Shown here piece after piece: positions 1 to 50,296 of a DNA stretch of 50,296 bases. Position 1 is the stretch's first letter; each line of letters begins with the position of its first letter. The DNA lies in contig JALXBY010000244.1 of assembly GCA_026991215.1 (NCBI GenBank), positions 1 through 50,296 of the forward strand, given 5' to 3'. This DNA comes from Anaerolineales bacterium. Its GTDB lineage: Bacteria > Chloroflexota > Anaerolineae > Anaerolineales > DRMV01. Made by a program: the position numbers and the translations under genes. The notes beneath the pieces were generated by a model. The model did not search any database and was not told where the DNA came from. It was given only the letters and a program-made list of their open reading frames with translations.

Positions 1-351
1 GCGCGCCTGGTCGGGAAAGGTCCGGGTATTGATGGGCTTGGCGATGTAGCCATCACAGCCGGCCTCGTAGCATTTGGCCGGCGTATCCCGGAGCACGTCC
101 GCGGTCAGGGCGATGATGGGCACCTGCTGGAACTCCGGACGGCTGCGCAGTTCCTGGATGAGGGTGAAGCCGTCCACACCGGGCAGGTGCAGATCCATGA
201 GGATGAGGTCCGGACGCGCGGTTTCCAGCAAGCGCCGCATGGCCTGGGCGTCCTCGGCTTCCAGCAGGTCGTAGCCCGCGGCGCTCAACAAGCGGCGGAT
301 GAGCATCCGGTTGGCGGGATTGTCCTCGACGTACAGAATCAAAGGCGGCAT
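1..351 (-). CDS. Response regulator receiver (CheY-like REC) domain protein, C-terminus cut by the window edge
   Basis: My own minus-strand translation from the ATG at 351 gives MPPLILYVEDNPANRMLIRRLL...DLILMDLHLPGVDGF...PIIALTAD...GYIAKP. These are the acidic pocket, phospho-acceptor Asp, and Thr and Lys positions of REC domains. GAGG lies 8 nt upstream. The ORF is missing from the track because it runs off the edge. Confidence 0.85.
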   Translation of the reverse strand, partial: MPPLILYVEDNPANRMLIRRLLSAAGYDLLEAEDAQAMRRLLETARPDLILMDLHLPGVDGFTLIQELRSRPEFQQVPIIALTADVLRDTPAKCYEAGCDGYIAKPINTRTFPDQAR

Positions 352-391
352 GGGCATCGCCTCGGCGGAAAAAGTTACGGGGCTTCCTGTT

Positions 392-400
392 AATATAGCA
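392..400 (-). promoter_or_regulatory. Possible extended -10 element (TGCTATATT on the minus strand) upstream of the response-regulator gene
   Basis: A TGnTATATT match lies about 40 nt upstream of the REC start codon in the 141-nt gap between the PRTase and REC genes. No good -35 is visible. Confidence 0.2.
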
Positions 401-492
401 CACCCGGTGCAGGATTGCGGAAGGAAACCTAAAAAGCAGATGAAACGCTCTGTTCCCCCTGGCAGCGGTTTTGGGGGGTTTTGCATTAAGGC

Positions 493-1200
493 TCAAGGGT
501 TGGGGGAAGACGCGACCCGACCGGCCCGCGCGAGCCAGTCCAGCAGGGCCTGGTCGTCCAGGTCGGTCCAGGTCTGGTAGGCTTCGGCCACCGCGTAGGG
601 GGTTTCCTCCCGGATGTTGGGGCAGTAGACGGTCTCGACCTGGCGGGCCAGATGCCACAGGGCGGTCTGGTGCGCGGTGGGCACGGCCAGGGCCAGTCGG
701 CCCGCGCCCGCGTTCCGGGCCACCCGGATGGCCACCTGCATGGTCGCGCCCGTGGCCAGGCCGTCGTCCACCAGGAACACGCTGTGCTGGCTCAGGTCGG
801 GCAGGGGCCGGGCGCCCCGCAGTACCTGCAAGCGGCGGGCAACTTTCTCCCGTGTCCGCCGGATATCGGCCTCGACCTCCGCGGGGGAAAGGCCCAGGTG
901 CTCCACCAGGGCCTCGTTGAGCATCAGGGTGCCATCCCAGGCCAGGGCGCCGTACCCCATCTCCGGGTTCCACGAAGGCGTGATTTTGCTCACCACCGCG
1001 AGTTCCAGGGGCCATCCGAGCCGTTCGTGCAGGGCCACGGCTACGGGCACCCCGCCGGCGGGGATGGCCAAAAGCAGCGGCCGGGGCCACCGGTCGGCTT
1101 CCATGGCAATCAACTCGGCCAGTACCTGCCCGGCGTGGTACCTGTCCCGGAAGACCCGTCGGCGGTTCCGCAGGTTGGGCAGGTCAATTACCCGCGGCAT
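493..1200 (-). CDS. Phosphoribosyltransferase-family protein
   Basis: 235-aa ORF with the PRPP-binding loop SVFLVDDGLATGATM. It overlaps the upstream cytidylyltransferase gene by 17 nt. Confidence 0.85.
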   Translation of the reverse strand: MPRVIDLPNLRNRRRVFRDRYHAGQVLAELIAMEADRWPRPLLLAIPAGGVPVAVALHERLGWPLELAVVSKITPSWNPEMGYGALAWDGTLMLNEALVEHLGLSPAEVEADIRRTREKVARRLQVLRGARPLPDLSQHSVFLVDDGLATGATMQVAIRVARNAGAGRLALAVPTAHQTALWHLARQVETVYCPNIREETPYAVAEAYQTWTDLDDQALLDWLARAGRVASSPNP

Positions 1201-1987
1201 GGGGTCCTTCCTCCTGCCCCAGGGATTTCAAGTACCCCTCGTTGCGGGGCACCCGGCGGGGCAACCGGGCCAGTTCGGGTTCGGCTTCCAGCAGGGCCAG
1301 GATGTCTTCCATGGTGAACAGGGGGGTATGGGGGTAAAGGCGGGCGTAGACCGCGCGGGCAAAGGCCAGGTCCTCCGGGTAGTCCACGGTCCAGCGCAGG
1401 TGGGCCAGGTTCACCGGCCCTTTCCAGGAAAACAGCCGGAAGCGGTGGGGCCGCTTCCATATATATGGGGTGACATGCTCCCGGTCCGCGGGGTGTACGG
1501 CCTCCTTCCAGGCGGTCGCCAGGGCCTCGAAGGTGAAGATTTCCAGGTCCAGACCCTCTGGATAGGTTGGCTCCAGGGTGTTGCTCAGGTAGTCCCAGGC
1601 GGGGTAGGTCTCCAGCCAGAAGCGGAGCATCAGGGTGAGCAAGCCGGGGTCCTTGAAGGGGTCGTCCGCGGTGATGCGGACGATGGTCCGGGCCTGGAAG
1701 GTTTTCGCCGCGTGGTAGAAGCGGTCCAGCACGTCTTCGGAACTGCCCCGGTAGACGGGGTATCCCAGCCGTTGGCTTTCCTCCACCAGGGCGTCGTCTT
1801 CGGGAAGCGTGGTGGTGGCCACGACCAGGCCGTCCAGGAGGGGGCACGCGGCCATCCGCTCCAGGATGTGGGCCAGCATGGACTTACCGGCCAGGGGTTC
1901 CAGCACCTTGCCCGGCAGCCGGGTGGACCCCATCCGGGCCTGGACGATGCCAATGACAGGGCGGGGCACAAGACGCAAGGCGGCCAT
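1184..1987 (-). CDS. Cytidylyltransferase-family protein (SpsF / acylneuraminate cytidylyltransferase-like)
   Basis: 267-aa ORF with the N-terminal motif GIVQARMGSTRLPGKVL, typical of CMP-sugar and SpsF-type nucleotidyltransferases. Confidence 0.8.
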   Translation of the reverse strand: MAALRLVPRPVIGIVQARMGSTRLPGKVLEPLAGKSMLAHILERMAACPLLDGLVVATTTLPEDDALVEESQRLGYPVYRGSSEDVLDRFYHAAKTFQARTIVRITADDPFKDPGLLTLMLRFWLETYPAWDYLSNTLEPTYPEGLDLEIFTFEALATAWKEAVHPADREHVTPYIWKRPHRFRLFSWKGPVNLAHLRWTVDYPEDLAFARAVYARLYPHTPLFTMEDILALLEAEPELARLPRRVPRNEGYLKSLGQEEGPHAAGN

Positions 1988-1990
1988 GGG

Positions 1991-2488
1991 TTACCTCTGG
2001 GCCCGCAACCACGCGGTGACCACCAACACGGCCAGAACCAGCACCTGCTGCCAGCGCAGGGAGCGAATCAGGCTGCGGCGCAGGGCTTCCTGGTCGCCTT
2101 CGGGGGCAGGCTGCCCGGCTTGCAGGCGTAAAGCCCAGCGTTCCCAGGCCGGCAGCCGGACCCATTGCAGGTAGGCCAGGCCCACGATCCAGGCCAGCAC
2201 CAGGATGTGCTTGAACAGCAAACCTTTGGCCCAGGGGGTGCTGAAGTTCAACGTGCCCTGGTACAGGGGGTGCTTGGTCATCTGGAACATCCCCGTAGCC
2301 CACAGCAGGGCCACGGCCATCCAGGTCAACCGCAGGAAGGCCCGGTAACGACGTATCCAGGAGGGGACCGGCTGTTGGGGGAGGAAGAGGATGCGCGTCA
2401 GGTCGAAGGCGGAAAGCAGGGCGCCCAGGCTCACCACCGTGGCGACCAGATGAATCCCATAGGCCAGGGCCAGCAGCCATGTCTCCAT
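1991..2488 (-). CDS. Integral membrane protein, unknown function
   Basis: 165-aa ORF with about four hydrophobic segments (LLALAYGIHLVATVVSLGALL, WMAVALLWATGMF, ILVLAWIVGLAYL, VLVLAVLVVTAWL). GAGG lies 8 nt upstream, and there is a 3-nt gap to the next gene. Confidence 0.7.
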   Translation of the reverse strand: METWLLALAYGIHLVATVVSLGALLSAFDLTRILFLPQQPVPSWIRRYRAFLRLTWMAVALLWATGMFQMTKHPLYQGTLNFSTPWAKGLLFKHILVLAWIVGLAYLQWVRLPAWERWALRLQAGQPAPEGDQEALRRSLIRSLRWQQVLVLAVLVVTAWLRAQR

Positions 2489-2504
2489 ACGGCCGGCCTC
2501 GCGT

Positions 2505-2660
2505 TCACTGAATCACCAGGGTCACCAGGAAGGAGATGACCAGAAGGATGCCAACGACCGTGAGGATGATGCGGTACCGTCGCTGTTGCCGCTCATAATA
2601 ACTCATGGTTTGGGTCTGCCGTTTGTTGCGCCGCTTTTTCCGCTGCTTTTTCTTGGCCAT
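2505..2660 (-). CDS. Small basic single-pass membrane protein (51 aa)
   Basis: The internal ATG of track ORF 2505..3176 gives MAKKKQRKKRRNKRQTQTMSYYERQQRRYRIILTVVGILLVISFLVTLVIQ, a Lys/Arg-rich head plus one TM helix. GGAG lies 8 nt upstream. The rest of the 223-aa ORF is antisense to the kinase gene and looks spurious. Confidence 0.5.
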   Translation of the reverse strand: MAKKKQRKKRRNKRQTQTMSYYERQQRRYRIILTVVGILLVISFLVTLVIQ

Positions 2661-2756
2661 GGCTGCGCTCCAGGGGAAATGGTGTAGGCTATTATACACG
2701 CGGCCCGGAACGGCCATTCTCCAGAGGAAGGATACGACGCCTCCGCCAAAAGGACG

Positions 2757-3134
2757 ATGTCTGCCATGGAAAAGCCCCCCGTTCGACCGCCCAGGCGTAT
2801 TGGCATCGTGGGGCCGTGCGGTGCGGGGAAGAGCACCCTGGCCCGGGCCCTGCAGGCTTTGGGGTTCCAGGCCAAGGCCATTGCCCAGGAGCATTCCCAC
2901 GTGCCCGACATGTGGCAGCGCCTCACCCGGCCCGACCTGCTGGTCTACCTGGACGCCTCTTTCGAGACCTGCACCCAACGTAAGGGCCTGCACTGGACGC
3001 GGGCCGACTATGAAGAAGAACTGCGCCGGCTGGCCCACGCCCGGTCCCACGCAGATATCTACATCCCCACCGACGACCTCAGCCCGGAAGAGGTGCTGCA
3101 ACGGGTTCTGGAGGCGCTGTTTTCCAGTTGTTGA
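2757..3134 (+). CDS. Small P-loop NTPase / nucleotide-kinase-like protein
   Basis: 125-aa ORF with Walker A IGIVGPCGAGKSTLARAL and a hhhhD-like LLVYLD. Its GC is high like the housekeeping flanks. Confidence 0.75.
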   Translation: MSAMEKPPVRPPRRIGIVGPCGAGKSTLARALQALGFQAKAIAQEHSHVPDMWQRLTRPDLLVYLDASFETCTQRKGLHWTRADYEEELRRLAHARSHADIYIPTDDLSPEEVLQRVLEALFSSC

Positions 3135-3144
3135 CCGTGGTCTG

Positions 3145-4260
3145 CTAACCCTGGAAGGTATCTGCCCGGAACCCAAAAATTGTCACAGCCCGTTGCAAGC
3201 GGGGTTCCCATACCGCAATGTGGGGGATGCGTCGCGCCAGGGCCTGTGCATACGTGCCGTAGACCCAGCGTGGCAGTCGGCCCCAAAGAATGACGGAACG
3301 CATGGCTTTGGGCCAGTTGGGTTCAGGTAAAGTGGTGGGCATGAGAAAGCCGCGAAGTTGGATTCGCAGAAGCCACCGTCCCGCGTCCACGGGCTCCATG
3401 TGAAGGAGCACGTCCTTTGTGCCTGAAGTATCCACCTGGGGCAGGTGGACCCATCCCAAATGGGCATCAAAGACCGCCATGGGAGCGGGCGCCACATGCG
3501 CCGCTATGGCCGCGGCCAGCCAGGTCGGTCCGCGACCGTACAGGGATACAGGTCCACGCGGAATCACTCGAAGCAGACGAGGGAGGTCCTCTGGAGTCCA
3601 CCAGGCAGGTAAAGGTTTCCCCAGGGTGCGGGCCAGCTCCCGCTCACTAAGGAACGGATACGGTGCGGTTTTCCGATGCAGGGCTTCCAGGTCTTCCTCC
3701 CGGAGGCGGAACAAGGCAAACACCCGGCGGGCTAAAGCCTCAAAGGTCTTTCCCAGGCGGGGATGGTGCCGGTCCAGCCCGGTAATGGTTCCGGTGAGAT
3801 ACGGATGCGTCCCCGCGAGGACATCCTCCCCCTGAAGGCGGCTTTCCAGGACAGCAAGGAGGGAGAGGTCCGTGGCGCGAATGTGGGCCATCCAATATTC
3901 CCGTTCCTCGGGTGTACGGTAAAGCAAGATACCGTGGGTACATGCCCGAAGGATTTCCCACTGTTCACCCCGTGGCCGTCCGCCCATATCCACCAGGAGC
4001 GGGGTGTGCCGGTGCTGGAGAAGCGTCACCATGCGTCGTACCAGGTCCGGCGTATAACGGCCTTTGGCCGCAAGACGCAGGGAGAGCACCTTATTTCGGG
4101 GCCCTTCATAAAACCAGTTCCCTTCGCCATCCGGCGCGGTGCGCAACAGATAATGGGCGAGACCCGCCCGATATAAACGCCGGCTGAGGTGATACGCCAA
4201 TACGGACTTGCCACTATGCGGTGGCCCCATGACCAATAAGGCGGGGAGATTTAAGCCCAT
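3145..4260 (-). CDS. csx3: P-loop NTPase fused to a C-terminal Csx3-like (cA4 ring-nuclease family) domain, preceded by a second partial Csx3-like motif
   Basis: 371 aa. It has Walker A GPPHSGKS (res 12-19) and Walker-B-like PLLVDMGG. Res 285-371 (LLHMEPVDAGRWLLRIQL...VILWGRLPRWVYGTYAQALARRIPHIAVWEPRLQRAVTI) matches, from memory, A. fulgidus Csx3 (...VVISGRGPIWLHCFLAHKYHHTPFVAVYDPRLGAVVV). A second copy of the motif, YGRGPTWLAAAIAAHVAPAPMAVFDAHLGWV, lies at res 241-271. Confidence 0.65.
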   Translation of the reverse strand: MGLNLPALLVMGPPHSGKSVLAYHLSRRLYRAGLAHYLLRTAPDGEGNWFYEGPRNKVLSLRLAAKGRYTPDLVRRMVTLLQHRHTPLLVDMGGRPRGEQWEILRACTHGILLYRTPEEREYWMAHIRATDLSLLAVLESRLQGEDVLAGTHPYLTGTITGLDRHHPRLGKTFEALARRVFALFRLREEDLEALHRKTAPYPFLSERELARTLGKPLPAWWTPEDLPRLLRVIPRGPVSLYGRGPTWLAAAIAAHVAPAPMAVFDAHLGWVHLPQVDTSGTKDVLLHMEPVDAGRWLLRIQLRGFLMPTTLPEPNWPKAMRSVILWGRLPRWVYGTYAQALARRIPHIAVWEPRLQRAVTIFGFRADTFQG

Positions 4261-4332
4261 GGCACCCCCTTTCCCTATATCGGCATGGTATCATTCAAAC
4301 ACATCATTTTGAGCCTCCGAAGAGGAAAAAAC
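4261..4332. promoter_or_regulatory. 72-nt divergent control region between the csx3-fusion gene and the CARF-LuxR / cas operon
   Basis: This is the only sizeable non-coding gap in the CRISPR island. It contains TGGTATCAT (extended -10-like, 4286-4294, + strand) and the direct repeat ATCATT-N7-ATCATT (4290-4308). GAGGA (4322-4326) lies 6 nt before the ATG at 4333. Confidence 0.35.
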
Positions 4333-5253
4333 ATGCTGGGGGAAAGGCTTCTGGCCTCCTTGGGAGGCCAACCTCAAATTTTGACTTTTACGTTGGATGC
4401 TTTGCTAGCACGGGGAATCCGCCCGCAAGTGGTGGAAGTTGTCTTTCCGGGAGGAAACCCCGTCTACCAAGCCGCTTTTCGTCGGCTTCAACGTGAATTT
4501 ACGCGCTATCAAGCATACCAATCCATTCCTTTGCAGGCCTGTAGCCTTACAGACCGAGACGGCCATCCTCTTCCGGATTTACTTTCTGATTTGCATTTAG
4601 ATGAAGCCTGGCAACAGGTGCGTGACCGCGTACGTACGCTGAAAGCCGAAGGTTGGCGTTTGCATTTTAGCATTACCGGCGGCCGCCGTGCGCTGGGCCT
4701 GATGCTCTACGCCGCGGCCATGACCTATGGCTCGCCCCAGGATAAGGTCTGGCACATCTACACCCCGCCCGAATGGCTGGCCCAGGTCAAGGATGGCGCG
4801 CGCATGCACCTGCCCCAGGGCACGGTGCGGTTGTTGGAGATTCCCTTCGTGCCCTGGACCGCGTATTTCCCCGGTTTGCGAAGCCTGTTGGAGATGTCCC
4901 CGGAAGTGTTGCGTCGGTTGATGGGGGAAGGGCTGGATGAGGAAACCCAACGCCGTTGTGCCCGGGTGTGGGCGCGGCTGACCCCTCGCCAGAAAGATGC
5001 GCTACGGGCCTTGGCCACCACGGAAACCCGGGCCGAAGCCGCGCGGGCCATGGGCGTCGACCTGGATACCCTGGATTCCCATCGCAAGGCCATTCTGCGG
5101 GTGTGCCGCGCGGCCTGGCCGGAGGCCAGGGTGGATTTGCGCTTTGTGCGCCGGGTCTTCCGGCTGTGGCTGACCGCCACTAACGGCCTCCCCACTTTGC
5201 GGGGAGATTTTCAGGAGGAGATGGGGATGGAAACTACGAATTTTTCCTCATAA
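4333..5253 (+). CDS. CARF (NE0113/TIGR02584-like) domain fused to a LuxR/FixJ-type HTH: predicted cOA-responsive transcription regulator
   Basis: The start is placed at the internal ATG with an SD; the track start at 4285 has none. N-terminal SLGGQPQILTFTLDAL and SITGGRRALG are the two hallmark CARF/NE0113 motifs. Res 216-257 (LTPRQKDALRALATTETRAEAARAMGVDLDTLDSHRKAILRV) fits the LuxR-type HTH pattern. Confidence 0.7.
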   Translation: MLGERLLASLGGQPQILTFTLDALLARGIRPQVVEVVFPGGNPVYQAAFRRLQREFTRYQAYQSIPLQACSLTDRDGHPLPDLLSDLHLDEAWQQVRDRVRTLKAEGWRLHFSITGGRRALGLMLYAAAMTYGSPQDKVWHIYTPPEWLAQVKDGARMHLPQGTVRLLEIPFVPWTAYFPGLRSLLEMSPEVLRRLMGEGLDEETQRRCARVWARLTPRQKDALRALATTETRAEAARAMGVDLDTLDSHRKAILRVCRAAWPEARVDLRFVRRVFRLWLTATNGLPTLRGDFQEEMGMETTNFSS

Positions 5254-5281
5254 AGTCATTCTTGGTCAGGGAGGTTTTGCC

Positions 5282-5449
5282 ATGGCGGATGAATGGCTGG
5301 AGCACCTTTTGGAAAGGCCTTCGTCCACGGCCCGCCAGATGCTGGAACAACGCACCGGCATGCAGGTTCTCTCCCTCAGCGACCTGCCGGCCTTTCTGGA
5401 AGCAGCCATGCGGGCGTGGGTGGAGGCGCAAGCCGAGCCCACATCCTGA
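5282..5449 (+). CDS. Hypothetical 55-aa acidic protein directly upstream of cas10
   Basis: My own translation gives MADEWLEHLLERPSSTARQMLEQRTGMQVLSLSDLPAFLEAAMRAWVEAQAEPTS*. GGGAGG (5269-5274) lies 7 nt before the ATG, and the stop is 15 nt before the cas10 ATG. It is below the 60-aa cutoff of the ORF track. Confidence 0.45.
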   Translation: MADEWLEHLLERPSSTARQMLEQRTGMQVLSLSDLPAFLEAAMRAWVEAQAEPTS

Positions 5450-5464
5450 ACTTTAGGAGGTTGT

Positions 5465-7090
5465 ATGAGCCAGAAAAACGTACTTCTCCAAGGCGATGTA
5501 GACGCCATCAAATCCTATGTATTTGAGGCTTCCGGGCTACCCCAAATTCGCGGTGGCAGTCAACGGCTCATCAAATGTGAGCAAGAAGTGGAAAAGTTGG
5601 TAGAACAGCGGGGAGGGCGCACGATTTATTGCGGAGGAGGTGGTTTCCTGTTTGAAATACCTGCGGACGAAGCAGAAAATCTCAAACGCGAAATCGAGCG
5701 CATCTACCTAAAGTACACCCAAGTGGCTACTGTGACGGTAGTGTATGAAGACGCTCCTGAGCTCCCTCTTCCCGAGCCAAACATCACGGATGGCTGGGCA
5801 GGTCGTCTGGTCAAGGCCCATCAGGAAGCCCAGAGCGCCGGCGAATTTGCCCGTCGCACCGCGTTCCTGGCCGCGAGGTTGCGGGAGGCAAAACAACAAA
5901 AGCAGGTCGTACCCTTTATTGAAGCCTTCCCCTTCGGTAAGCGGTGTGAGATTTGCGGTAAGCGGGTGGCGGAAAGGAAGGTGACTTACACCCAAAGCGG
6001 GATGTTTGAAACGAAACATGTGTGTCGTGTGTGTTACCGGAGACATCGCACAGGTCGTATATGCCGCCACCGTGGTTTTGAGCGATTCTTAGAGAAGAGG
6101 AGATATAACTTACCATCCACTCCTCCCAAGGATGTGAACGAACTGGCTGCAAGTGCACGACGCCCTTATGTGGCCTTTCTCTATGCTGATGGGAACAACG
6201 TCGGCGACCTGTTACAGAAGGTCAAAGACGAGAATGAATATGCAGTCCTATCCAAGGCCCTAACAGAGGGCACAGAACAAGCCCTGTACGAGGCCCTTTG
6301 GGAGGTCTGCCAAAAGCCACTGGAACAAGAGAAAGCCTGGCCCTTTGAAATCCTCAACATCGGCGGTGATGACGTTACCCTGCTTATACAAGCCGGGTAT
6401 GCCTGGGATGTGGCCGTGGCGTTTCTGGGGAAATTCGAGCAATATGTACAAGAGAAGGTGAAGGATAATCTCGGTTATTGGCCCGCGGCTTGGCCCATGC
6501 CTATTACCGCTTCGGTGGGTATTGCTATCGCCGATGCCAAACACCCCGTGTGGTATCTGGAAGCGCTGGCCACCGACCTGCTCAAGAAAGCCAAAGTCAA
6601 GGCCCGGCAGGCGGAAACAAGCGCCATCAACTTCCTGTGGTTGCCCAACGCCATTGCCATTACCAGAGCCGAAGCCGTCACCGAGCAATACAAAGTGGGC
6701 GATTTTCATCTGACCGCACGGCCTTTTACCCTGGCGCAAGCGAGAAAGATGCAAGATGTGGTCAATATCCTCGCTTCATGGCCCCGCAGCCTGCGCCATC
6801 GGTGGGGCAAGGCCCTGGAACGCGGGCGTTGGACCGCTCTCTCCCAAATCCTTTATGACCTGGCCCGACGGCGGAACGGTGAGCATCGTGAAAAGGTGGG
6901 AAGATTCATCGATGCCTTAGAAGACTTGGCCACGACGTTTCAGGCTGAGCGGGAAGACGAGGCCCCCATTTATCTCTGGTGGCCCACCGAGGAAAATGGG
7001 CGCCGCATCTGGAAAACGCCTTTGCTGGACGCCTTGGAACTGGCCGAACTTCGCGCCATGCGGTCGGATATTCAAGAGGAGGGCGACTAA
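5465..7090 (+). CDS. cas10: Cas10 large subunit, compact (541 aa), no HD domain, intact GGDD cyclase motif
   Basis: AGGAGG lies upstream. The N-terminus starts directly with the Palm1-type motif LLQGDVDAIKSYVF...IRGGSQRL. A treble-clef Zn finger is present (C161-x2-C164...C187-x2-C190; nt 5945-6034). The Palm2 motif is ILNIGGDDVTLL, with GGDD at aa 300-303 (nt 6362-6373). Confidence 0.88.
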   Translation: MSQKNVLLQGDVDAIKSYVFEASGLPQIRGGSQRLIKCEQEVEKLVEQRGGRTIYCGGGGFLFEIPADEAENLKREIERIYLKYTQVATVTVVYEDAPELPLPEPNITDGWAGRLVKAHQEAQSAGEFARRTAFLAARLREAKQQKQVVPFIEAFPFGKRCEICGKRVAERKVTYTQSGMFETKHVCRVCYRRHRTGRICRHRGFERFLEKRRYNLPSTPPKDVNELAASARRPYVAFLYADGNNVGDLLQKVKDENEYAVLSKALTEGTEQALYEALWEVCQKPLEQEKAWPFEILNIGGDDVTLLIQAGYAWDVAVAFLGKFEQYVQEKVKDNLGYWPAAWPMPITASVGIAIADAKHPVWYLEALATDLLKKAKVKARQAETSAINFLWLPNAIAITRAEAVTEQYKVGDFHLTARPFTLAQARKMQDVVNILASWPRSLRHRWGKALERGRWTALSQILYDLARRRNGEHREKVGRFIDALEDLATTFQAEREDEAPIYLWWPTEENGRRIWKTPLLDALELAELRAMRSDIQEEGD

Positions 7091-7750
7091 ATGGTGCATC
7101 TCAAAATCGCCTTGCGTCTCAAATGGCGAACCGCGTTCCACACCACAGGCAACCGCTGGCGATGGGGCGCGGACAAGGCCCTGGTCCAGCGATATGACGA
7201 CACCTATGTACTCCCTGCCACCTCCCTCAAAGGTGCCCTGCGAGACCAGGCTGAACAATTGCTACGTGGCCATGTGCACATCTGTAATGCACCCGACCCC
7301 GGTCAAATGTGCTCGGATCTTGAGAACTTGTGCTTAGTCTGTCGGGTCTTTGGCAACCCCCGGCGGCCTTCTCTCTTACGATTTCAGGACGGGGTTTTGA
7401 GGAGAAAGAATATAGGCGAGATAGAGACCCAAATCCGCGCCGGTGTAGCCATCAGCCGACGCCGTCGTGCAGCGGTTCCCCAGCGGTTGTATTTTGTGGA
7501 AACCACCGTGGCAGGCCCCGTGGAAGCCCAGACAGTTATCGAAGGCTTCTTTCCTTCTCAACAAGAGGCCGAAGAGGCCGCGGCCCTGGTAGTTTTGGCG
7601 GCCCGGATGCTCCCGGCGTTGGGCGCGGGGCGTACCCGCGGCCTGGGTTGGCTGGAAGCCATTGAGACCGAATGCACGATGGACGGCCAGCCGTTAGCCG
7701 GGACGGCGCTGGAACGCTATTGGAACCGGTGGTTAGGAGGCGGCCAATGA
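7091..7750 (+). CDS. cas7: Cas7-family RAMP (Csm3/Cmr4-like)
   Basis: The ATG immediately follows the cas10 TAA. Motifs present are GADKALV...LPATSLKGALRD, CRVFG and the glycine-rich loop GAGRTRGLGW. Confidence 0.85.
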   Translation: MVHLKIALRLKWRTAFHTTGNRWRWGADKALVQRYDDTYVLPATSLKGALRDQAEQLLRGHVHICNAPDPGQMCSDLENLCLVCRVFGNPRRPSLLRFQDGVLRRKNIGEIETQIRAGVAISRRRRAAVPQRLYFVETTVAGPVEAQTVIEGFFPSQQEAEEAAALVVLAARMLPALGAGRTRGLGWLEAIETECTMDGQPLAGTALERYWNRWLGGGQ

Positions 7751-8985: not shown

Positions 8986-9392
8986 AGAAGTTAAATTCGA
9001 GAACCCGTCAGGCACTCGCGACGAAAGAGGACGAGTTGGTGCAACAGGCCCGCGAAGTGGCGAAGGCATTATGGGAGTCCTTAAACGAAAAACAGCGGAA
9101 AGACGGTAAGGTGCGCCAACTGCGCAACATCCTGGAAGTCGCCAAGAGCACCGACTCATGGAAGGCTTTGGCCTTGTTTGTCCGATACCAGGCTGCACGC
9201 ACTACAGATAACATTCCCCGAGATTGGGCAGAGTATCTGATTGATGAGATGGAGAACTTAACGGACACTGCCAATGAGATTGCAAAACAAACCCATGATG
9301 ACCCTAAGACAATTCACCTGGAAATGGTCACCCGCGTTTTGGGCCACGCGGTGCGCTGGCATCTCTGGGATGTGAAAAGCCAGGAGGGATAA
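8982..9392 (+). CDS. cas11: Cas11 small subunit (Csm2/Cmr5-like), all-helical, 136 aa
   Basis: The ATGA overlaps the csx10 stop. The sequence is helical with a KVRQLRNILEVAK segment resembling the Csm2 (T/S)QhRKh motif. The position is canonical. Confidence 0.65.
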   Translation: MKKLNSRTRQALATKEDELVQQAREVAKALWESLNEKQRKDGKVRQLRNILEVAKSTDSWKALALFVRYQAARTTDNIPRDWAEYLIDEMENLTDTANEIAKQTHDDPKTIHLEMVTRVLGHAVRWHLWDVKSQEG

Positions 9393-9395
9393 GCC

Positions 9396-40901: not shown

Positions 40902-40904
40902 GGC

Positions 40905-41315
40905 TTATCCCTCCTGGCTTTTCACATCCCAGAGATGCCAGCGCACCGCGTGGCCCAAAACGCGGGTGACCATTTCCAGGTGAATTGTCTTAGGGTCATC
41001 ATGGGTTTGTTTTGCAATCTCATTGGCAGTGTCCGTTAAGTTCTCCATCTCATCAATCAGATACTCTGCCCAATCTCGGGGAATGTTATCTGTAGTGCGT
41101 GCAGCCTGGTATCGGACAAACAAGGCCAAAGCCTTCCATGAGTCGGTGCTCTTGGCGACTTCCAGGATGTTGCGCAGTTGGCGCACCTTACCGTCTTTCC
41201 GCTGTTTTTCGTTTAAGGACTCCCATAATGCCTTCGCCACTTCGCGGGCCTGTTGCACCAACTCGTCCTCTTTCGTCGCGAGTGCCTGACGGGTTCTCGA
41301 ATTTAACTTCTTCAT
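40905..41315 (-). CDS. cas11: Mirror copy of 8982..9392: Cas11 small subunit
   Basis: Exact reverse-complement twin. Confidence 0.65.
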   Translation of the reverse strand: MKKLNSRTRQALATKEDELVQQAREVAKALWESLNEKQRKDGKVRQLRNILEVAKSTDSWKALALFVRYQAARTTDNIPRDWAEYLIDEMENLTDTANEIAKQTHDDPKTIHLEMVTRVLGHAVRWHLWDVKSQEG

Positions 41316-42550: not shown

Positions 42551-43206
42551 TGGCCGCCTCCTAACCACCGGTTCCAATAGCGTTCCAGCGCCGTCCCGGC
42601 TAACGGCTGGCCGTCCATCGTGCATTCGGTCTCAATGGCTTCCAGCCAACCCAGGCCGCGGGTACGCCCCGCGCCCAACGCCGGGAGCATCCGGGCCGCC
42701 AAAACTACCAGGGCCGCGGCCTCTTCGGCCTCTTGTTGAGAAGGAAAGAAGCCTTCGATAACTGTCTGGGCTTCCACGGGGCCTGCCACGGTGGTTTCCA
42801 CAAAATACAACCGCTGGGGAACCGCTGCACGACGGCGTCGGCTGATGGCTACACCGGCGCGGATTTGGGTCTCTATCTCGCCTATATTCTTTCTCCTCAA
42901 AACCCCGTCCTGAAATCGTAAGAGAGAAGGCCGCCGGGGGTTGCCAAAGACCCGACAGACTAAGCACAAGTTCTCAAGATCCGAGCACATTTGACCGGGG
43001 TCGGGTGCATTACAGATGTGCACATGGCCACGTAGCAATTGTTCAGCCTGGTCTCGCAGGGCACCTTTGAGGGAGGTGGCAGGGAGTACATAGGTGTCGT
43101 CATATCGCTGGACCAGGGCCTTGTCCGCGCCCCATCGCCAGCGGTTGCCTGTGGTGTGGAACGCGGTTCGCCATTTGAGACGCAAGGCGATTTTGAGATG
43201 CACCAT
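42547..43206 (-). CDS. cas7: Mirror copy of 7091..7750: Cas7-family RAMP
   Basis: Exact reverse-complement twin. Confidence 0.85.
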   Translation of the reverse strand: MVHLKIALRLKWRTAFHTTGNRWRWGADKALVQRYDDTYVLPATSLKGALRDQAEQLLRGHVHICNAPDPGQMCSDLENLCLVCRVFGNPRRPSLLRFQDGVLRRKNIGEIETQIRAGVAISRRRRAAVPQRLYFVETTVAGPVEAQTVIEGFFPSQQEAEEAAALVVLAARMLPALGAGRTRGLGWLEAIETECTMDGQPLAGTALERYWNRWLGGGQ

Positions 43207-44832
43207 TTAGTCGCCCTCCTCTTGAATATCCGACCGCATGGCGCGAAGTTCGGCCAGTTCCAAGGCGTCCAGCAAAGGCGTTTTCCAGATGCGGCGCCCA
43301 TTTTCCTCGGTGGGCCACCAGAGATAAATGGGGGCCTCGTCTTCCCGCTCAGCCTGAAACGTCGTGGCCAAGTCTTCTAAGGCATCGATGAATCTTCCCA
43401 CCTTTTCACGATGCTCACCGTTCCGCCGTCGGGCCAGGTCATAAAGGATTTGGGAGAGAGCGGTCCAACGCCCGCGTTCCAGGGCCTTGCCCCACCGATG
43501 GCGCAGGCTGCGGGGCCATGAAGCGAGGATATTGACCACATCTTGCATCTTTCTCGCTTGCGCCAGGGTAAAAGGCCGTGCGGTCAGATGAAAATCGCCC
43601 ACTTTGTATTGCTCGGTGACGGCTTCGGCTCTGGTAATGGCAATGGCGTTGGGCAACCACAGGAAGTTGATGGCGCTTGTTTCCGCCTGCCGGGCCTTGA
43701 CTTTGGCTTTCTTGAGCAGGTCGGTGGCCAGCGCTTCCAGATACCACACGGGGTGTTTGGCATCGGCGATAGCAATACCCACCGAAGCGGTAATAGGCAT
43801 GGGCCAAGCCGCGGGCCAATAACCGAGATTATCCTTCACCTTCTCTTGTACATATTGCTCGAATTTCCCCAGAAACGCCACGGCCACATCCCAGGCATAC
43901 CCGGCTTGTATAAGCAGGGTAACGTCATCACCGCCGATGTTGAGGATTTCAAAGGGCCAGGCTTTCTCTTGTTCCAGTGGCTTTTGGCAGACCTCCCAAA
44001 GGGCCTCGTACAGGGCTTGTTCTGTGCCCTCTGTTAGGGCCTTGGATAGGACTGCATATTCATTCTCGTCTTTGACCTTCTGTAACAGGTCGCCGACGTT
44101 GTTCCCATCAGCATAGAGAAAGGCCACATAAGGGCGTCGTGCACTTGCAGCCAGTTCGTTCACATCCTTGGGAGGAGTGGATGGTAAGTTATATCTCCTC
44201 TTCTCTAAGAATCGCTCAAAACCACGGTGGCGGCATATACGACCTGTGCGATGTCTCCGGTAACACACACGACACACATGTTTCGTTTCAAACATCCCGC
44301 TTTGGGTGTAAGTCACCTTCCTTTCCGCCACCCGCTTACCGCAAATCTCACACCGCTTACCGAAGGGGAAGGCTTCAATAAAGGGTACGACCTGCTTTTG
44401 TTGTTTTGCCTCCCGCAACCTCGCGGCCAGGAACGCGGTGCGACGGGCAAATTCGCCGGCGCTCTGGGCTTCCTGATGGGCCTTGACCAGACGACCTGCC
44501 CAGCCATCCGTGATGTTTGGCTCGGGAAGAGGGAGCTCAGGAGCGTCTTCATACACTACCGTCACAGTAGCCACTTGGGTGTACTTTAGGTAGATGCGCT
44601 CGATTTCGCGTTTGAGATTTTCTGCTTCGTCCGCAGGTATTTCAAACAGGAAACCACCTCCTCCGCAATAAATCGTGCGCCCTCCCCGCTGTTCTACCAA
44701 CTTTTCCACTTCTTGCTCACATTTGATGAGCCGTTGACTGCCACCGCGAATTTGGGGTAGCCCGGAAGCCTCAAATACATAGGATTTGATGGCGTCTACA
44801 TCGCCTTGGAGAAGTACGTTTTTCTGGCTCAT
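43207..44832 (-). CDS. cas10: Mirror copy of 5465..7090: HD-less Cas10
   Basis: Exact reverse-complement twin, with the identical 541-aa translation. Confidence 0.88.
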   Translation of the reverse strand: MSQKNVLLQGDVDAIKSYVFEASGLPQIRGGSQRLIKCEQEVEKLVEQRGGRTIYCGGGGFLFEIPADEAENLKREIERIYLKYTQVATVTVVYEDAPELPLPEPNITDGWAGRLVKAHQEAQSAGEFARRTAFLAARLREAKQQKQVVPFIEAFPFGKRCEICGKRVAERKVTYTQSGMFETKHVCRVCYRRHRTGRICRHRGFERFLEKRRYNLPSTPPKDVNELAASARRPYVAFLYADGNNVGDLLQKVKDENEYAVLSKALTEGTEQALYEALWEVCQKPLEQEKAWPFEILNIGGDDVTLLIQAGYAWDVAVAFLGKFEQYVQEKVKDNLGYWPAAWPMPITASVGIAIADAKHPVWYLEALATDLLKKAKVKARQAETSAINFLWLPNAIAITRAEAVTEQYKVGDFHLTARPFTLAQARKMQDVVNILASWPRSLRHRWGKALERGRWTALSQILYDLARRRNGEHREKVGRFIDALEDLATTFQAEREDEAPIYLWWPTEENGRRIWKTPLLDALELAELRAMRSDIQEEGD

Positions 44833-44847
44833 ACAACCTCCTAAAGT

Positions 44848-45015
44848 TCAGGATGTGGGCTCGGCTTGCGCCTCCACCCACGCCCGCATGGCTGCTTCCA
44901 GAAAGGCCGGCAGGTCGCTGAGGGAGAGAACCTGCATGCCGGTGCGTTGTTCCAGCATCTGGCGGGCCGTGGACGAAGGCCTTTCCAAAAGGTGCTCCAG
45001 CCATTCATCCGCCAT
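44848..45015 (-). CDS. Mirror copy of 5282..5449: hypothetical 55-aa protein
   Basis: Exact reverse-complement twin. Confidence 0.45.
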   Translation of the reverse strand: MADEWLEHLLERPSSTARQMLEQRTGMQVLSLSDLPAFLEAAMRAWVEAQAEPTS

Positions 45016-45043
45016 GGCAAAACCTCCCTGACCAAGAATGACT

Positions 45044-45964
45044 TTATGAGGAAAAATTCGTAGTTTCCATCCCCATCTCCTCCTGAAAATCTCCCCGCAA
45101 AGTGGGGAGGCCGTTAGTGGCGGTCAGCCACAGCCGGAAGACCCGGCGCACAAAGCGCAAATCCACCCTGGCCTCCGGCCAGGCCGCGCGGCACACCCGC
45201 AGAATGGCCTTGCGATGGGAATCCAGGGTATCCAGGTCGACGCCCATGGCCCGCGCGGCTTCGGCCCGGGTTTCCGTGGTGGCCAAGGCCCGTAGCGCAT
45301 CTTTCTGGCGAGGGGTCAGCCGCGCCCACACCCGGGCACAACGGCGTTGGGTTTCCTCATCCAGCCCTTCCCCCATCAACCGACGCAACACTTCCGGGGA
45401 CATCTCCAACAGGCTTCGCAAACCGGGGAAATACGCGGTCCAGGGCACGAAGGGAATCTCCAACAACCGCACCGTGCCCTGGGGCAGGTGCATGCGCGCG
45501 CCATCCTTGACCTGGGCCAGCCATTCGGGCGGGGTGTAGATGTGCCAGACCTTATCCTGGGGCGAGCCATAGGTCATGGCCGCGGCGTAGAGCATCAGGC
45601 CCAGCGCACGGCGGCCGCCGGTAATGCTAAAATGCAAACGCCAACCTTCGGCTTTCAGCGTACGTACGCGGTCACGCACCTGTTGCCAGGCTTCATCTAA
45701 ATGCAAATCAGAAAGTAAATCCGGAAGAGGATGGCCGTCTCGGTCTGTAAGGCTACAGGCCTGCAAAGGAATGGATTGGTATGCTTGATAGCGCGTAAAT
45801 TCACGTTGAAGCCGACGAAAAGCGGCTTGGTAGACGGGGTTTCCTCCCGGAAAGACAACTTCCACCACTTGCGGGCGGATTCCCCGTGCTAGCAAAGCAT
45901 CCAACGTAAAAGTCAAAATTTGAGGTTGGCCTCCCAAGGAGGCCAGAAGCCTTTCCCCCAGCAT
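45044..45964 (-). CDS. Mirror copy of 4333..5253: CARF-LuxR HTH regulator
   Basis: Exact reverse-complement twin. Confidence 0.7.
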   Translation of the reverse strand: MLGERLLASLGGQPQILTFTLDALLARGIRPQVVEVVFPGGNPVYQAAFRRLQREFTRYQAYQSIPLQACSLTDRDGHPLPDLLSDLHLDEAWQQVRDRVRTLKAEGWRLHFSITGGRRALGLMLYAAAMTYGSPQDKVWHIYTPPEWLAQVKDGARMHLPQGTVRLLEIPFVPWTAYFPGLRSLLEMSPEVLRRLMGEGLDEETQRRCARVWARLTPRQKDALRALATTETRAEAARAMGVDLDTLDSHRKAILRVCRAAWPEARVDLRFVRRVFRLWLTATNGLPTLRGDFQEEMGMETTNFSS

Positions 45965-46036
45965 GTTTTTTCCTCTTCGGAGGCTCAAAATGATGTGTTT
46001 GAATGATACCATGCCGATATAGGGAAAGGGGGTGCC

Positions 46037-47152
46037 ATGGGCTTAAATCTCCCCGCCTTATTGGTCATGGGGCCACCGCATAGTGGCAAGTCCGTATTGG
46101 CGTATCACCTCAGCCGGCGTTTATATCGGGCGGGTCTCGCCCATTATCTGTTGCGCACCGCGCCGGATGGCGAAGGGAACTGGTTTTATGAAGGGCCCCG
46201 AAATAAGGTGCTCTCCCTGCGTCTTGCGGCCAAAGGCCGTTATACGCCGGACCTGGTACGACGCATGGTGACGCTTCTCCAGCACCGGCACACCCCGCTC
46301 CTGGTGGATATGGGCGGACGGCCACGGGGTGAACAGTGGGAAATCCTTCGGGCATGTACCCACGGTATCTTGCTTTACCGTACACCCGAGGAACGGGAAT
46401 ATTGGATGGCCCACATTCGCGCCACGGACCTCTCCCTCCTTGCTGTCCTGGAAAGCCGCCTTCAGGGGGAGGATGTCCTCGCGGGGACGCATCCGTATCT
46501 CACCGGAACCATTACCGGGCTGGACCGGCACCATCCCCGCCTGGGAAAGACCTTTGAGGCTTTAGCCCGCCGGGTGTTTGCCTTGTTCCGCCTCCGGGAG
46601 GAAGACCTGGAAGCCCTGCATCGGAAAACCGCACCGTATCCGTTCCTTAGTGAGCGGGAGCTGGCCCGCACCCTGGGGAAACCTTTACCTGCCTGGTGGA
46701 CTCCAGAGGACCTCCCTCGTCTGCTTCGAGTGATTCCGCGTGGACCTGTATCCCTGTACGGTCGCGGACCGACCTGGCTGGCCGCGGCCATAGCGGCGCA
46801 TGTGGCGCCCGCTCCCATGGCGGTCTTTGATGCCCATTTGGGATGGGTCCACCTGCCCCAGGTGGATACTTCAGGCACAAAGGACGTGCTCCTTCACATG
46901 GAGCCCGTGGACGCGGGACGGTGGCTTCTGCGAATCCAACTTCGCGGCTTTCTCATGCCCACCACTTTACCTGAACCCAACTGGCCCAAAGCCATGCGTT
47001 CCGTCATTCTTTGGGGCCGACTGCCACGCTGGGTCTACGGCACGTATGCACAGGCCCTGGCGCGACGCATCCCCCACATTGCGGTATGGGAACCCCGCTT
47101 GCAACGGGCTGTGACAATTTTTGGGTTCCGGGCAGATACCTTCCAGGGTTAG
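46037..47152 (+). CDS. csx3: Mirror copy of 3145..4260: P-loop NTPase-Csx3 fusion
   Basis: Exact reverse-complement twin. Confidence 0.65.
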   Translation: MGLNLPALLVMGPPHSGKSVLAYHLSRRLYRAGLAHYLLRTAPDGEGNWFYEGPRNKVLSLRLAAKGRYTPDLVRRMVTLLQHRHTPLLVDMGGRPRGEQWEILRACTHGILLYRTPEEREYWMAHIRATDLSLLAVLESRLQGEDVLAGTHPYLTGTITGLDRHHPRLGKTFEALARRVFALFRLREEDLEALHRKTAPYPFLSERELARTLGKPLPAWWTPEDLPRLLRVIPRGPVSLYGRGPTWLAAAIAAHVAPAPMAVFDAHLGWVHLPQVDTSGTKDVLLHMEPVDAGRWLLRIQLRGFLMPTTLPEPNWPKAMRSVILWGRLPRWVYGTYAQALARRIPHIAVWEPRLQRAVTIFGFRADTFQG

Positions 47153-47162
47153 CAGACCACGG

Positions 47163-47540
47163 TCAACAACTGGAAAACAGCGCCTCCAGAACCCGTTGCA
47201 GCACCTCTTCCGGGCTGAGGTCGTCGGTGGGGATGTAGATATCTGCGTGGGACCGGGCGTGGGCCAGCCGGCGCAGTTCTTCTTCATAGTCGGCCCGCGT
47301 CCAGTGCAGGCCCTTACGTTGGGTGCAGGTCTCGAAAGAGGCGTCCAGGTAGACCAGCAGGTCGGGCCGGGTGAGGCGCTGCCACATGTCGGGCACGTGG
47401 GAATGCTCCTGGGCAATGGCCTTGGCCTGGAACCCCAAAGCCTGCAGGGCCCGGGCCAGGGTGCTCTTCCCCGCACCGCACGGCCCCACGATGCCAATAC
47501 GCCTGGGCGGTCGAACGGGGGGCTTTTCCATGGCAGACAT
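47163..47540 (-). CDS. Mirror copy of 2757..3134: small P-loop kinase-like protein
   Basis: Exact reverse-complement twin. Confidence 0.75.
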   Translation of the reverse strand: MSAMEKPPVRPPRRIGIVGPCGAGKSTLARALQALGFQAKAIAQEHSHVPDMWQRLTRPDLLVYLDASFETCTQRKGLHWTRADYEEELRRLAHARSHADIYIPTDDLSPEEVLQRVLEALFSSC

Positions 47541-47636
47541 CGTCCTTTTGGCGGAGGCGTCGTATCCTTCCTCTGGAGAATGGCCGTTCCGGGCCGCGTG
47601 TATAATAGCCTACACCATTTCCCCTGGAGCGCAGCC

Positions 47637-47792
47637 ATGGCCAAGAAAAAGCAGCGGAAAAAGCGGCGCAACAAACGGCAGACCCAAACCATGAGTTATT
47701 ATGAGCGGCAACAGCGACGGTACCGCATCATCCTCACGGTCGTTGGCATCCTTCTGGTCATCTCCTTCCTGGTGACCCTGGTGATTCAGTGA
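47637..47792 (+). CDS. Mirror copy of 2505..2660: small basic membrane protein
   Basis: Exact reverse-complement twin. Confidence 0.5.
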   Translation: MAKKKQRKKRRNKRQTQTMSYYERQQRRYRIILTVVGILLVISFLVTLVIQ

Positions 47793-47808
47793 ACGCGAGG
47801 CCGGCCGT

Positions 47809-48306
47809 ATGGAGACATGGCTGCTGGCCCTGGCCTATGGGATTCATCTGGTCGCCACGGTGGTGAGCCTGGGCGCCCTGCTTTCCGCCTTCGACCTGAC
47901 GCGCATCCTCTTCCTCCCCCAACAGCCGGTCCCCTCCTGGATACGTCGTTACCGGGCCTTCCTGCGGTTGACCTGGATGGCCGTGGCCCTGCTGTGGGCT
48001 ACGGGGATGTTCCAGATGACCAAGCACCCCCTGTACCAGGGCACGTTGAACTTCAGCACCCCCTGGGCCAAAGGTTTGCTGTTCAAGCACATCCTGGTGC
48101 TGGCCTGGATCGTGGGCCTGGCCTACCTGCAATGGGTCCGGCTGCCGGCCTGGGAACGCTGGGCTTTACGCCTGCAAGCCGGGCAGCCTGCCCCCGAAGG
48201 CGACCAGGAAGCCCTGCGCCGCAGCCTGATTCGCTCCCTGCGCTGGCAGCAGGTGCTGGTTCTGGCCGTGTTGGTGGTCACCGCGTGGTTGCGGGCCCAG
48301 AGGTAA
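47809..48306 (+). CDS. Mirror copy of 1991..2488: integral membrane protein
   Basis: Exact reverse-complement twin. Confidence 0.7.
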   Translation: METWLLALAYGIHLVATVVSLGALLSAFDLTRILFLPQQPVPSWIRRYRAFLRLTWMAVALLWATGMFQMTKHPLYQGTLNFSTPWAKGLLFKHILVLAWIVGLAYLQWVRLPAWERWALRLQAGQPAPEGDQEALRRSLIRSLRWQQVLVLAVLVVTAWLRAQR

Positions 48307-48309
48307 CCC

Positions 48310-49113
48310 ATGGCCGCCTTGCGTCTTGTGCCCCGCCCTGTCATTGGCATCGTCCAGGCCCGGATGGGGTCCACCCGGCTGCCGGGCAAGGTGCTGGAAC
48401 CCCTGGCCGGTAAGTCCATGCTGGCCCACATCCTGGAGCGGATGGCCGCGTGCCCCCTCCTGGACGGCCTGGTCGTGGCCACCACCACGCTTCCCGAAGA
48501 CGACGCCCTGGTGGAGGAAAGCCAACGGCTGGGATACCCCGTCTACCGGGGCAGTTCCGAAGACGTGCTGGACCGCTTCTACCACGCGGCGAAAACCTTC
48601 CAGGCCCGGACCATCGTCCGCATCACCGCGGACGACCCCTTCAAGGACCCCGGCTTGCTCACCCTGATGCTCCGCTTCTGGCTGGAGACCTACCCCGCCT
48701 GGGACTACCTGAGCAACACCCTGGAGCCAACCTATCCAGAGGGTCTGGACCTGGAAATCTTCACCTTCGAGGCCCTGGCGACCGCCTGGAAGGAGGCCGT
48801 ACACCCCGCGGACCGGGAGCATGTCACCCCATATATATGGAAGCGGCCCCACCGCTTCCGGCTGTTTTCCTGGAAAGGGCCGGTGAACCTGGCCCACCTG
48901 CGCTGGACCGTGGACTACCCGGAGGACCTGGCCTTTGCCCGCGCGGTCTACGCCCGCCTTTACCCCCATACCCCCCTGTTCACCATGGAAGACATCCTGG
49001 CCCTGCTGGAAGCCGAACCCGAACTGGCCCGGTTGCCCCGCCGGGTGCCCCGCAACGAGGGGTACTTGAAATCCCTGGGGCAGGAGGAAGGACCCCATGC
49101 CGCGGGTAATTGA
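48310..49113 (+). CDS. Mirror copy of 1184..1987: cytidylyltransferase-family protein
   Basis: Exact reverse-complement twin. Confidence 0.8.
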   Translation: MAALRLVPRPVIGIVQARMGSTRLPGKVLEPLAGKSMLAHILERMAACPLLDGLVVATTTLPEDDALVEESQRLGYPVYRGSSEDVLDRFYHAAKTFQARTIVRITADDPFKDPGLLTLMLRFWLETYPAWDYLSNTLEPTYPEGLDLEIFTFEALATAWKEAVHPADREHVTPYIWKRPHRFRLFSWKGPVNLAHLRWTVDYPEDLAFARAVYARLYPHTPLFTMEDILALLEAEPELARLPRRVPRNEGYLKSLGQEEGPHAAGN

Positions 49114-49804
49114 CCTGCCCAACCTGCGGAACCGCCGACGGGTCTTCCGGGACAGGTACCACGCCGGGCAGGTACTGGCCGAGTTGATTGCCATGGAAGC
49201 CGACCGGTGGCCCCGGCCGCTGCTTTTGGCCATCCCCGCCGGCGGGGTGCCCGTAGCCGTGGCCCTGCACGAACGGCTCGGATGGCCCCTGGAACTCGCG
49301 GTGGTGAGCAAAATCACGCCTTCGTGGAACCCGGAGATGGGGTACGGCGCCCTGGCCTGGGATGGCACCCTGATGCTCAACGAGGCCCTGGTGGAGCACC
49401 TGGGCCTTTCCCCCGCGGAGGTCGAGGCCGATATCCGGCGGACACGGGAGAAAGTTGCCCGCCGCTTGCAGGTACTGCGGGGCGCCCGGCCCCTGCCCGA
49501 CCTGAGCCAGCACAGCGTGTTCCTGGTGGACGACGGCCTGGCCACGGGCGCGACCATGCAGGTGGCCATCCGGGTGGCCCGGAACGCGGGCGCGGGCCGA
49601 CTGGCCCTGGCCGTGCCCACCGCGCACCAGACCGCCCTGTGGCATCTGGCCCGCCAGGTCGAGACCGTCTACTGCCCCAACATCCGGGAGGAAACCCCCT
49701 ACGCGGTGGCCGAAGCCTACCAGACCTGGACCGACCTGGACGACCAGGCCCTGCTGGACTGGCTCGCGCGGGCCGGTCGGGTCGCGTCTTCCCCCAACCC
49801 TTGA
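49097..49804 (+). CDS. Mirror copy of 493..1200: phosphoribosyltransferase-family protein
   Basis: Exact reverse-complement twin. Confidence 0.85.
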   Translation: MPRVIDLPNLRNRRRVFRDRYHAGQVLAELIAMEADRWPRPLLLAIPAGGVPVAVALHERLGWPLELAVVSKITPSWNPEMGYGALAWDGTLMLNEALVEHLGLSPAEVEADIRRTREKVARRLQVLRGARPLPDLSQHSVFLVDDGLATGATMQVAIRVARNAGAGRLALAVPTAHQTALWHLARQVETVYCPNIREETPYAVAEAYQTWTDLDDQALLDWLARAGRVASSPNP

Positions 49805-49945
49805 GCCTTAATGCAAAACCCCCCAAAACCGCTGCCAGGGGGAACAGAGCGTTTCATCTGCTTTTTAGGTTTCCTTCCGCAATCCTGCACCGGGTGTGCT
49901 ATATTAACAGGAAGCCCCGTAACTTTTTCCGCCGAGGCGATGCCC

Positions 49946-50296
49946 ATGCCGCCTTTGATTCTGTACGTCGAGGACAATCCCGCCAACCGGATGCTCATCC
50001 GCCGCTTGTTGAGCGCCGCGGGCTACGACCTGCTGGAAGCCGAGGACGCCCAGGCCATGCGGCGCTTGCTGGAAACCGCGCGTCCGGACCTCATCCTCAT
50101 GGATCTGCACCTGCCCGGTGTGGACGGCTTCACCCTCATCCAGGAACTGCGCAGCCGTCCGGAGTTCCAGCAGGTGCCCATCATCGCCCTGACCGCGGAC
50201 GTGCTCCGGGATACGCCGGCCAAATGCTACGAGGCCGGCTGTGATGGCTACATCGCCAAGCCCATCAATACCCGGACCTTTCCCGACCAGGCGCGC
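49946..50296 (+). CDS. Mirror copy of 1..351: REC-domain response regulator, truncated by the window edge
   Basis: Exact reverse-complement twin. This is the strand on which I translated it. Confidence 0.85.
   Translation, partial: MPPLILYVEDNPANRMLIRRLLSAAGYDLLEAEDAQAMRRLLETARPDLILMDLHLPGVDGFTLIQELRSRPEFQQVPIIALTADVLRDTPAKCYEAGCDGYIAKPINTRTFPDQAR

Follow-up and report, generated by a model that had tools for sequence, protein, structure and literature searches.

Contig JALXBY010000244.1, deposited in GenBank as part of assembly GCA_026991215.1 and assigned to an Anaerolineales bacterium of the phylum Chloroflexota, is 50,296 nucleotides (nt) long, and that whole stretch of DNA is the window analysed here. 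From its first letter to its last it is a palindrome: compared directly with its own reverse complement, the window shows 0 mismatches over 50,296 nt and contains no N, and it divides into two arms of 25,148 nt with no spacer between them and an even total length. On the first arm lie an incomplete response-regulator-like open reading frame (ORF), a few small genes, a type III-D CRISPR-Cas island, a block of housekeeping genes and, as the last gene before the fold, tsaD; on the second, the same genes stand in mirror image. Positions throughout are those of the window, in which the mirror of position x is 50297-x on the opposite strand. The features on which the argument depends are the following.

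1..25148, no strand: arm X, the sole unique sequence, delimited by the palindrome comparison and 99.9-100% identical to independent contigs over the parts that these cover.
25149..50296, no strand: the second arm, the exact reverse complement of 1..25148 (0 mismatches), carrying no independent information.
25111..25186, no strand: the period-7 tandem-repeat tract in which the fold-back centre lies, between 25148 and 25149 (Tandem Repeats Finder rows 25111-25134, 25133-25164 and 25163-25186).
1..43, no strand: the outer end of the arm, a reproducible assembly break in the response-regulator-like ORF that runs off the contig (one independent contig breaks at 40, another at 43).
Arm start: the response-regulator-like ORF, incomplete and running off position 1 (ORF list).
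Between the arm start and the CRISPR-Cas block: a phosphoribosyltransferase and a cytidylyltransferase, then small genes (gene calls, Pfam).
3119..16014, plus strand (mirror 34283..47178): a type III-D CRISPR-Cas island of 12.9 kilobases (kb), to be counted once and not twice (Csx10, TIGR02674, 392 bits).
16015..23571: the housekeeping block, comprising purH (minus), CCA-adding enzyme (minus), HPRT (minus), thymidine kinase tdk (minus), DJ-1 (plus), a protein of 448 amino acids (aa) (plus) and a NUDIX protein (plus) (Pfam, and gene calls on two related contigs introduced below, JBPNPS010000017.1 and scaffold_9838).
24029..25123, plus strand (mirror 25174..26268, minus strand): tsaD, 364 aa, the last gene of the arm (PF00814, 322 bits).

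The symmetry leaves its mark on every count that can be made. A and T each occur 9516 times and G and C each 15632 times, while all ORFs are paired at 50297-x on the opposite strand, as are 24849..25385 on the plus strand and 24912..25448 on the minus strand. The centre, between 25148 and 25149, reads CGCAGTGC on its left and GCACTGCG on its right, the two abutting directly. As the longest perfect palindrome elsewhere in the arm measures 14 nt, chance is irrelevant to a palindrome of 50 kb. An earlier, sequence-only reading of this stretch had described a perfect, spacerless palindrome of 2 x 25,148 nt in which each ORF has its opposite-strand partner, and both descriptions are confirmed by the direct comparison; its further claim, that only 25.1 kb is unique and that the second type III locus and the second purH are mirror images, also holds, the arms being identical letter for letter. 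Furthermore, the palindrome has no surroundings. The NCBI contig that carries the TsaD of the window (a protein cluster at 100% identity, 364 aa) has a recorded length of exactly 50,296 nt, so the window is the entire deposited contig and nothing unique lies outside the palindrome. The two contig ends are one sequence, and the outer unique flank that would join the arms of a duplication to a replicon is absent.

What the same site looks like elsewhere was read from assembled contigs and protein records, including those of NCBI, ENA, Logan, the JGI metagenome contigs and the GTDB species representatives. At 90% identity the TsaD cluster has two members besides that of the window. The first lies on NCBI contig JBPNPS010000017.1 (assembly GCA_054032375.1; 62,520 nt), which matches the arm by blastn at about 96% nt identity over 16015-25134 (96.5% over 7.9 kb of the housekeeping block, throughout which the two are collinear) and at 98.4% over 1157-3118, and which these values of 96-98% mark as conspecific. 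It follows the arm to window 25134 and continues with genes for a 2-hydroxyacid dehydrogenase (2-Hacid_dh), a PALP enzyme and a ketoacyl synthase and, after these, with over 10 kb of other genes; no inverted tsaD is present on it past the fold-back point. The second member lies on a 1.3-kb ENA contig from sample REYS20-1, a sister strain at 94.5% identity, in which the tsaD stop is followed by an array of heptamers (CTGCGCA, CTGCGGA, CCGCCGA and similar) and then by a ribosome-binding site and the start of the same 2-Hacid_dh gene, while other contig sequence of the REYS20 strain holds a partial 2-Hacid_dh, PALP and ketoacyl synthase. Because both the conspecific and the REYS20 strain run from tsaD into 2-Hacid_dh, the ancestral and conspecific arrangement at the site is, on the evidence of these sequences, an ordinary and non-palindromic one. 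Among GTDB species representatives the best relatives of TsaD, from Anaerolineales and Anaerolineae metagenome-assembled genomes (MAGs), share 63-66% of amino acids and none exceeds 66%; the species therefore has no representative there, and that source supplies no native junction. These relatives place the organism among the uncultured Chloroflexota, the arm being an Anaerolineae-like piece of chromosome.

Independent assemblies of the same population tell a similar story, in that none of three contigs covering parts of the arm reproduces the fold-back. In ENA JOHN19-1 (BioSample SAMN10217877), scaffold_20365 starts at window 40 and reproduces the sequence as far as 8235, differing at 1 of 8,196 nt, and scaffold_9838 corresponds to window 12864-25087 at 99.89% identity over the 12,228 nt read, stopping at window 25087 with an error-like poly-C tail, 61 nt short of the centre. 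Logan contig SRR14510437_283126, from run SRR14510437, is 100% identical to window 43-1306, its end falling at window 43. Differences between the window and the ENA contigs consist of substitutions and one small variable intergenic patch, and because homopolymer indel noise is absent from them the window sequence fits a short-read consensus. Of the 14 alignment columns that differ between the window and scaffold_9838 (substitutions and small indels together), 12 fall within 23880-23982, about 100 nt of intergenic sequence upstream of tsaD, which may be hypervariable locally or may stem from a recombined haplotype. At the outer end of the arm, window 1-43 points to a branch in the assembly graph, caused either by a repeat common to paralogues or other genomes or by a strain variant. 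Three assemblies (the window contig, scaffold_20365 and SRR14510437_283126) end there within 43 nt of one another.

The fold itself sits at an unusual place. From the TAA stop of tsaD, 25 nt before the centre, the tract runs CCGCCGA, CCGCGCA, GTCCGCA and GTGC up to the centre, and beyond it GCA, CTGCGGA, CTGCGCG, GTCGGCG and a final G. Tandem Repeats Finder reports three other period-7 tracts in the arm, all of them intergenic (20653-20716, 21380-21472 and 23532-23620); the four together amount to 284 nt, or 1.1% of the arm, and the centre sits in one of them, where a randomly placed fold-back would hit such a tract about 1 time in 90. Rich in GC, the centre tract abounds in short palindromic motifs (TGCGCA and GTGCGCAC among them), and it is hypervariable among strains, the REYS20-1 contig having a longer heptamer array and the conspecific contig almost none. 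On these grounds, namely a tract type that occupies so little of the arm, its GC-richness, its palindromic motifs and its variability between strains, the fold-back is sequence-driven and located where assembly is difficult. The 12-mer GCAGTCCGCAGT, with which the left arm ends, recurs at 21387, within another of the tracts and with its orientation unchanged, which suggests that the left arm is native sequence up to the centre itself. A multi-step strand switch, by which the left arm would end in 16 nt of inverted native sequence, was considered and rejected as needlessly complex, GCAGTCCGCAGT being native in that same orientation at 21387.

Tandem heptanucleotides of the TGGTCGT, CGGCAGT, GCTAACT, ATCGACC, CGCCGAC and GCGCACT types occupy intergenic positions at 20653-20716, 21380-21472, 23532-23620 and 25111-25148, and at about 1195-1265 of the REYS20-1 contig. 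Both their sequence and their copy number vary between close strains, and they coincide with contig breaks. With period-7 tracts spread across the arm, such intergenic repeats look like a genome-wide habit.

Taken together, the palindrome is very probably a contig consisting of X followed by the reverse complement of X, and not a structure of the genome. The sequence-only reading had called it a probable artefact of just this kind, a judgement that is now strongly supported, short of proof, by the collinearity of relatives, the contig breaks, the repeat tract at the centre, the absence of flanks and the literature. The true sequence would be a single chromosomal segment of 25,148 nt with its right end just past tsaD, and its native continuation, in conspecifics the 2-hydroxyacid dehydrogenase gene, would have been left unassembled. 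The graph path from tsaD to the next gene may have been broken through low coverage or ambiguous repeats in the GC-rich heptamer tract, while a self-complementary junction would have linked X at its end with its own reverse strand. Such a link could have arisen at a short palindrome native to the tract, or through a few chimeric reads of the snap-back or fold-back kind. The assembler would then have retraced the same graph path on the opposite strand and emitted X and afterwards its reverse complement, as far as the branch at the far end of X. Since both arms would be the same graph nodes, zero divergence, even length and the lack of spacer and flanks would all follow. We infer this mechanism, by which a short-read de Bruijn assembly forms a hairpin in its graph, along with the weighting of natural palindrome against chimeric reads: if the contig is an artefact, a pure graph hairpin takes roughly two-thirds of the weight and chimeric molecules as the trigger roughly one-third.

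Palindromic contigs of this sort have been met before. In SPAdes isolate assemblies of the GC-rich Mycobacterium bovis, 81 whole-contig palindromes were removed as assembly errors (PMC9455707), and whole-contig palindromes have been described as artefacts in single-cell assemblies of hot-spring cyanobacteria (bioRxiv 10.1101/2023.06.06.543983). The present contig shares with these a sequence joined to its exact reverse complement, mirrored gene copies, the lack of a unique flank and a GC-rich genome; it differs in coming from a metagenome-assembled genome, where the others came from isolates or amplified single cells, and at 50 kb it is a long example. Like them it is self-reverse-complementary over its full length without a spacer, has no unique flank and has relatives that are collinear through the fold-back point. 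We are thus highly confident in placing it in the known class of palindromic-contig artefacts and not among biological features.

Several points weigh against an artefact. The case is built on assembled contigs and not on reads crossing the junction between 25148 and 25149. The native junction from tsaD to the next gene was not found in any JOHN19-1 contig, either by look-up or by protein searches with the conspecific 2-Hacid_dh and PALP, which returned the conspecific itself and the REYS20 strain only; exact look-ups of TsaD, of a 745-aa minus-strand ORF and of a 324-aa ORF, seeking contigs that span the junction, found none on record, and the 28-mer directly before the centre has 0 matches in the JGI metagenome contigs. 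With no junction contig from JOHN19-1, the normal arrangement is seen only in the conspecific (96-98%) and the sister strain (94.5%). Gene order around tsaD is, moreover, not deeply conserved: more distant relatives, with TsaD at 90% and 84% identity, have other gene neighbours and so say nothing about the junction.

The explanation that survives best beside a hairpin in the graph belongs to the same class of artefact and places the fold-back in the sequenced molecules themselves. The junction would come from a snap-back or template-switch chimera that arose while the library was prepared or the whole genome amplified, or else from a long read whose hairpin adapter was missing or whose duplex was left unsplit, and ordinary reads would extend the contig on both sides. 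Palindromic chimeric reads are common after multiple displacement amplification (MDA) (PMC6218980; PMC13265396), and palindromic reads following whole-genome amplification have led to false inverted duplications in assemblies (the Pacasus paper, PMC6218980). The resemblance to palindromic reads from MDA or a missing adapter extends to the topology, X with its reverse complement, and to the false inverted duplication in the final assembly, and the short inverted motifs of the centre tract, TGCGCA and GTGCGCAC, are where snap-back priming would start. The differences are that the arms here are 25 kb long, error-free and without a spacer, that the junction lies in a specific repeat tract and that signs of long-read error, including indel noise of the long-read type, are absent. 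Reads that lack an adapter fold at random fragment ends, with no preference for a kind of repeat tract confined to 1.1% of the arm, and template switching usually leaves an asymmetric loop between the inverted segments, of which there is none here. Arms of 25 kb also exceed typical single chimeric reads, so that extension through the graph would be required in any case. We consider this origin possible but somewhat unlikely.

That the fold-back is real DNA, be it a recent inverted duplication of 2 x 25 kb (tsaD, purH and the type III-D island included) or a closed hairpin end, is in our estimation very improbable. The first of these two forms, a genuine and very recent spacerless chromosomal duplication that arose at the heptamer tract when replication folded back or switched template, would account for the perfect palindromy of the deposited sequence, for a centre located at short inverted motifs that permit replication template switching, and for the failure to find a same-population contig with the normal junction. 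It is highly unlikely all the same. Neither side has a unique flank, and a short-read assembler cannot resolve a perfect repeat of 25 kb, so the existence of such a contig does not speak for two copies; collinearity through the site holds in both the conspecific and the sister strain; and divergence between the arms is zero over 25 kb. If reads of a true centre were abundant, they would be expected to carry a de Bruijn contig about k/2 past it, whereas the same-population assembly stops 61 nt short. Long perfect palindromes without a spacer are, in addition, unstable in bacteria, being subject to SbcCD and to cruciform cleavage. The contig shares the form of a perfect spacerless inverted repeat with the natural and engineered palindromes that serve as SbcCD substrates, but the viable bacterial palindromes known to us are hundreds of bp (base pairs) at most or need sbcCD mutants, and we know of no precedent for a chromosomal palindrome of 2 x 25 kb in bacteria.

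The second form would make the centre the covalently closed hairpin telomere of a linear replicon, as in phage N15, Borrelia and the Agrobacterium linear chromosome, where sequencing round the closed hairpin gives exactly the perfect, spacerless combination of X and its reverse complement; the core GTGCGCAC is also an alternating purine-pyrimidine palindrome. Its probability is close to negligible, for the arm bears the ordinary chromosomal genes purH, CCA-adding enzyme, HPRT, tdk and tsaD, Pfam and NCBIfam scans of the main ORFs of the 25-kb arm showed no telomere-resolvase-like gene, the site is internal in the 62.5-kb conspecific contig (96-98% identity) with more than 10 kb of genes beyond it, and it is not conserved, the heptamer tract differing in every strain. 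A mobile element was also considered and rejected: the 25-kb arm, as scanned, has no tRNA and no Rfam match, and its main ORFs scanned with Pfam and NCBIfam include no resolvase, integrase, transposase, phage or plasmid gene.

The gene content of the arm calls for one correction. A 745-aa ORF at 21430-23667 on the minus strand was rejected as a gene: it has no family match, and the genes called there in relatives are on the plus strand. It overlaps the genes for the 448-aa protein and the NUDIX protein fully, and the DJ-1 gene in its last few bases. It is spurious, one of the long ORFs that high GC produces, and other long overlapping ORFs in the list probably are as well. The protein of about 448 aa encoded at 21475-22842 on the plus strand has no Pfam match and is conserved both in the conspecific contig (7534-8880) and in scaffold_9838.

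The most distinctive content of the arm is its type III-D island, which consists of a Csx3 fusion, CARF/NE0113 proteins, a short Cas10, Csx10, several Csx7-like RAMPs and a PIN protein. The components that bear on its mode of action, as identified by family scans, are these.

3145-4260, minus strand: a Csx3 (ring nuclease) fusion protein.
4285-5253 and 13592-14608: two CARF/NE0113-family proteins.
5465-7090, plus strand: Cas10, 541 aa, lacking both an HD domain and an HD motif, with its GGDD cyclase motif at residue 300 (family scans and translation).
12876-13595: a PIN-domain protein.

Because Cas10 is short and carries GGDD with no HD, and because it is accompanied by the Csx3 fusion, two CARF/NE0113 proteins and a PIN protein, the gene content suggests that the system relies on cyclic-oligoadenylate signalling rather than on the DNase activity of Cas10. 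The island has a GC content of 57%, against 66-68% in its flanks, and it is precisely absent from the conspecific contig, whose flanks are 96-98% identical and in which an AAA_18-like gene and purH are separated by just 34 nt of heptamer-like sequence (1963-1996 of that contig). The arm contains no CRISPR array, cas1, cas2 or cas6, and no integrase was found among the ORFs scanned. The island looks like a defence island recently gained or lost, with clean boundaries.

For users of this genome the palindrome is a flag of quality. Half of the public contig would be fictitious, and about 25 genes, a complete type III-D locus, purH and tsaD among them, would appear at twice their true copy number. 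Such an artefact would inflate estimates of contamination and duplication in MAGs, create false paralogues in pangenomes and in censuses of defence systems, and mimic giant inverted terminal repeats in screens for mobile elements. The contig should be truncated at 25148 before use, and the mirrored type III locus, purH, tsaD and other genes ignored; the type III-D island itself is real and single-copy. Were the palindrome genuine after all, a stable, spacerless palindrome of 50 kb in a bacterial chromosome would challenge the known intolerance of bacteria to palindromes.

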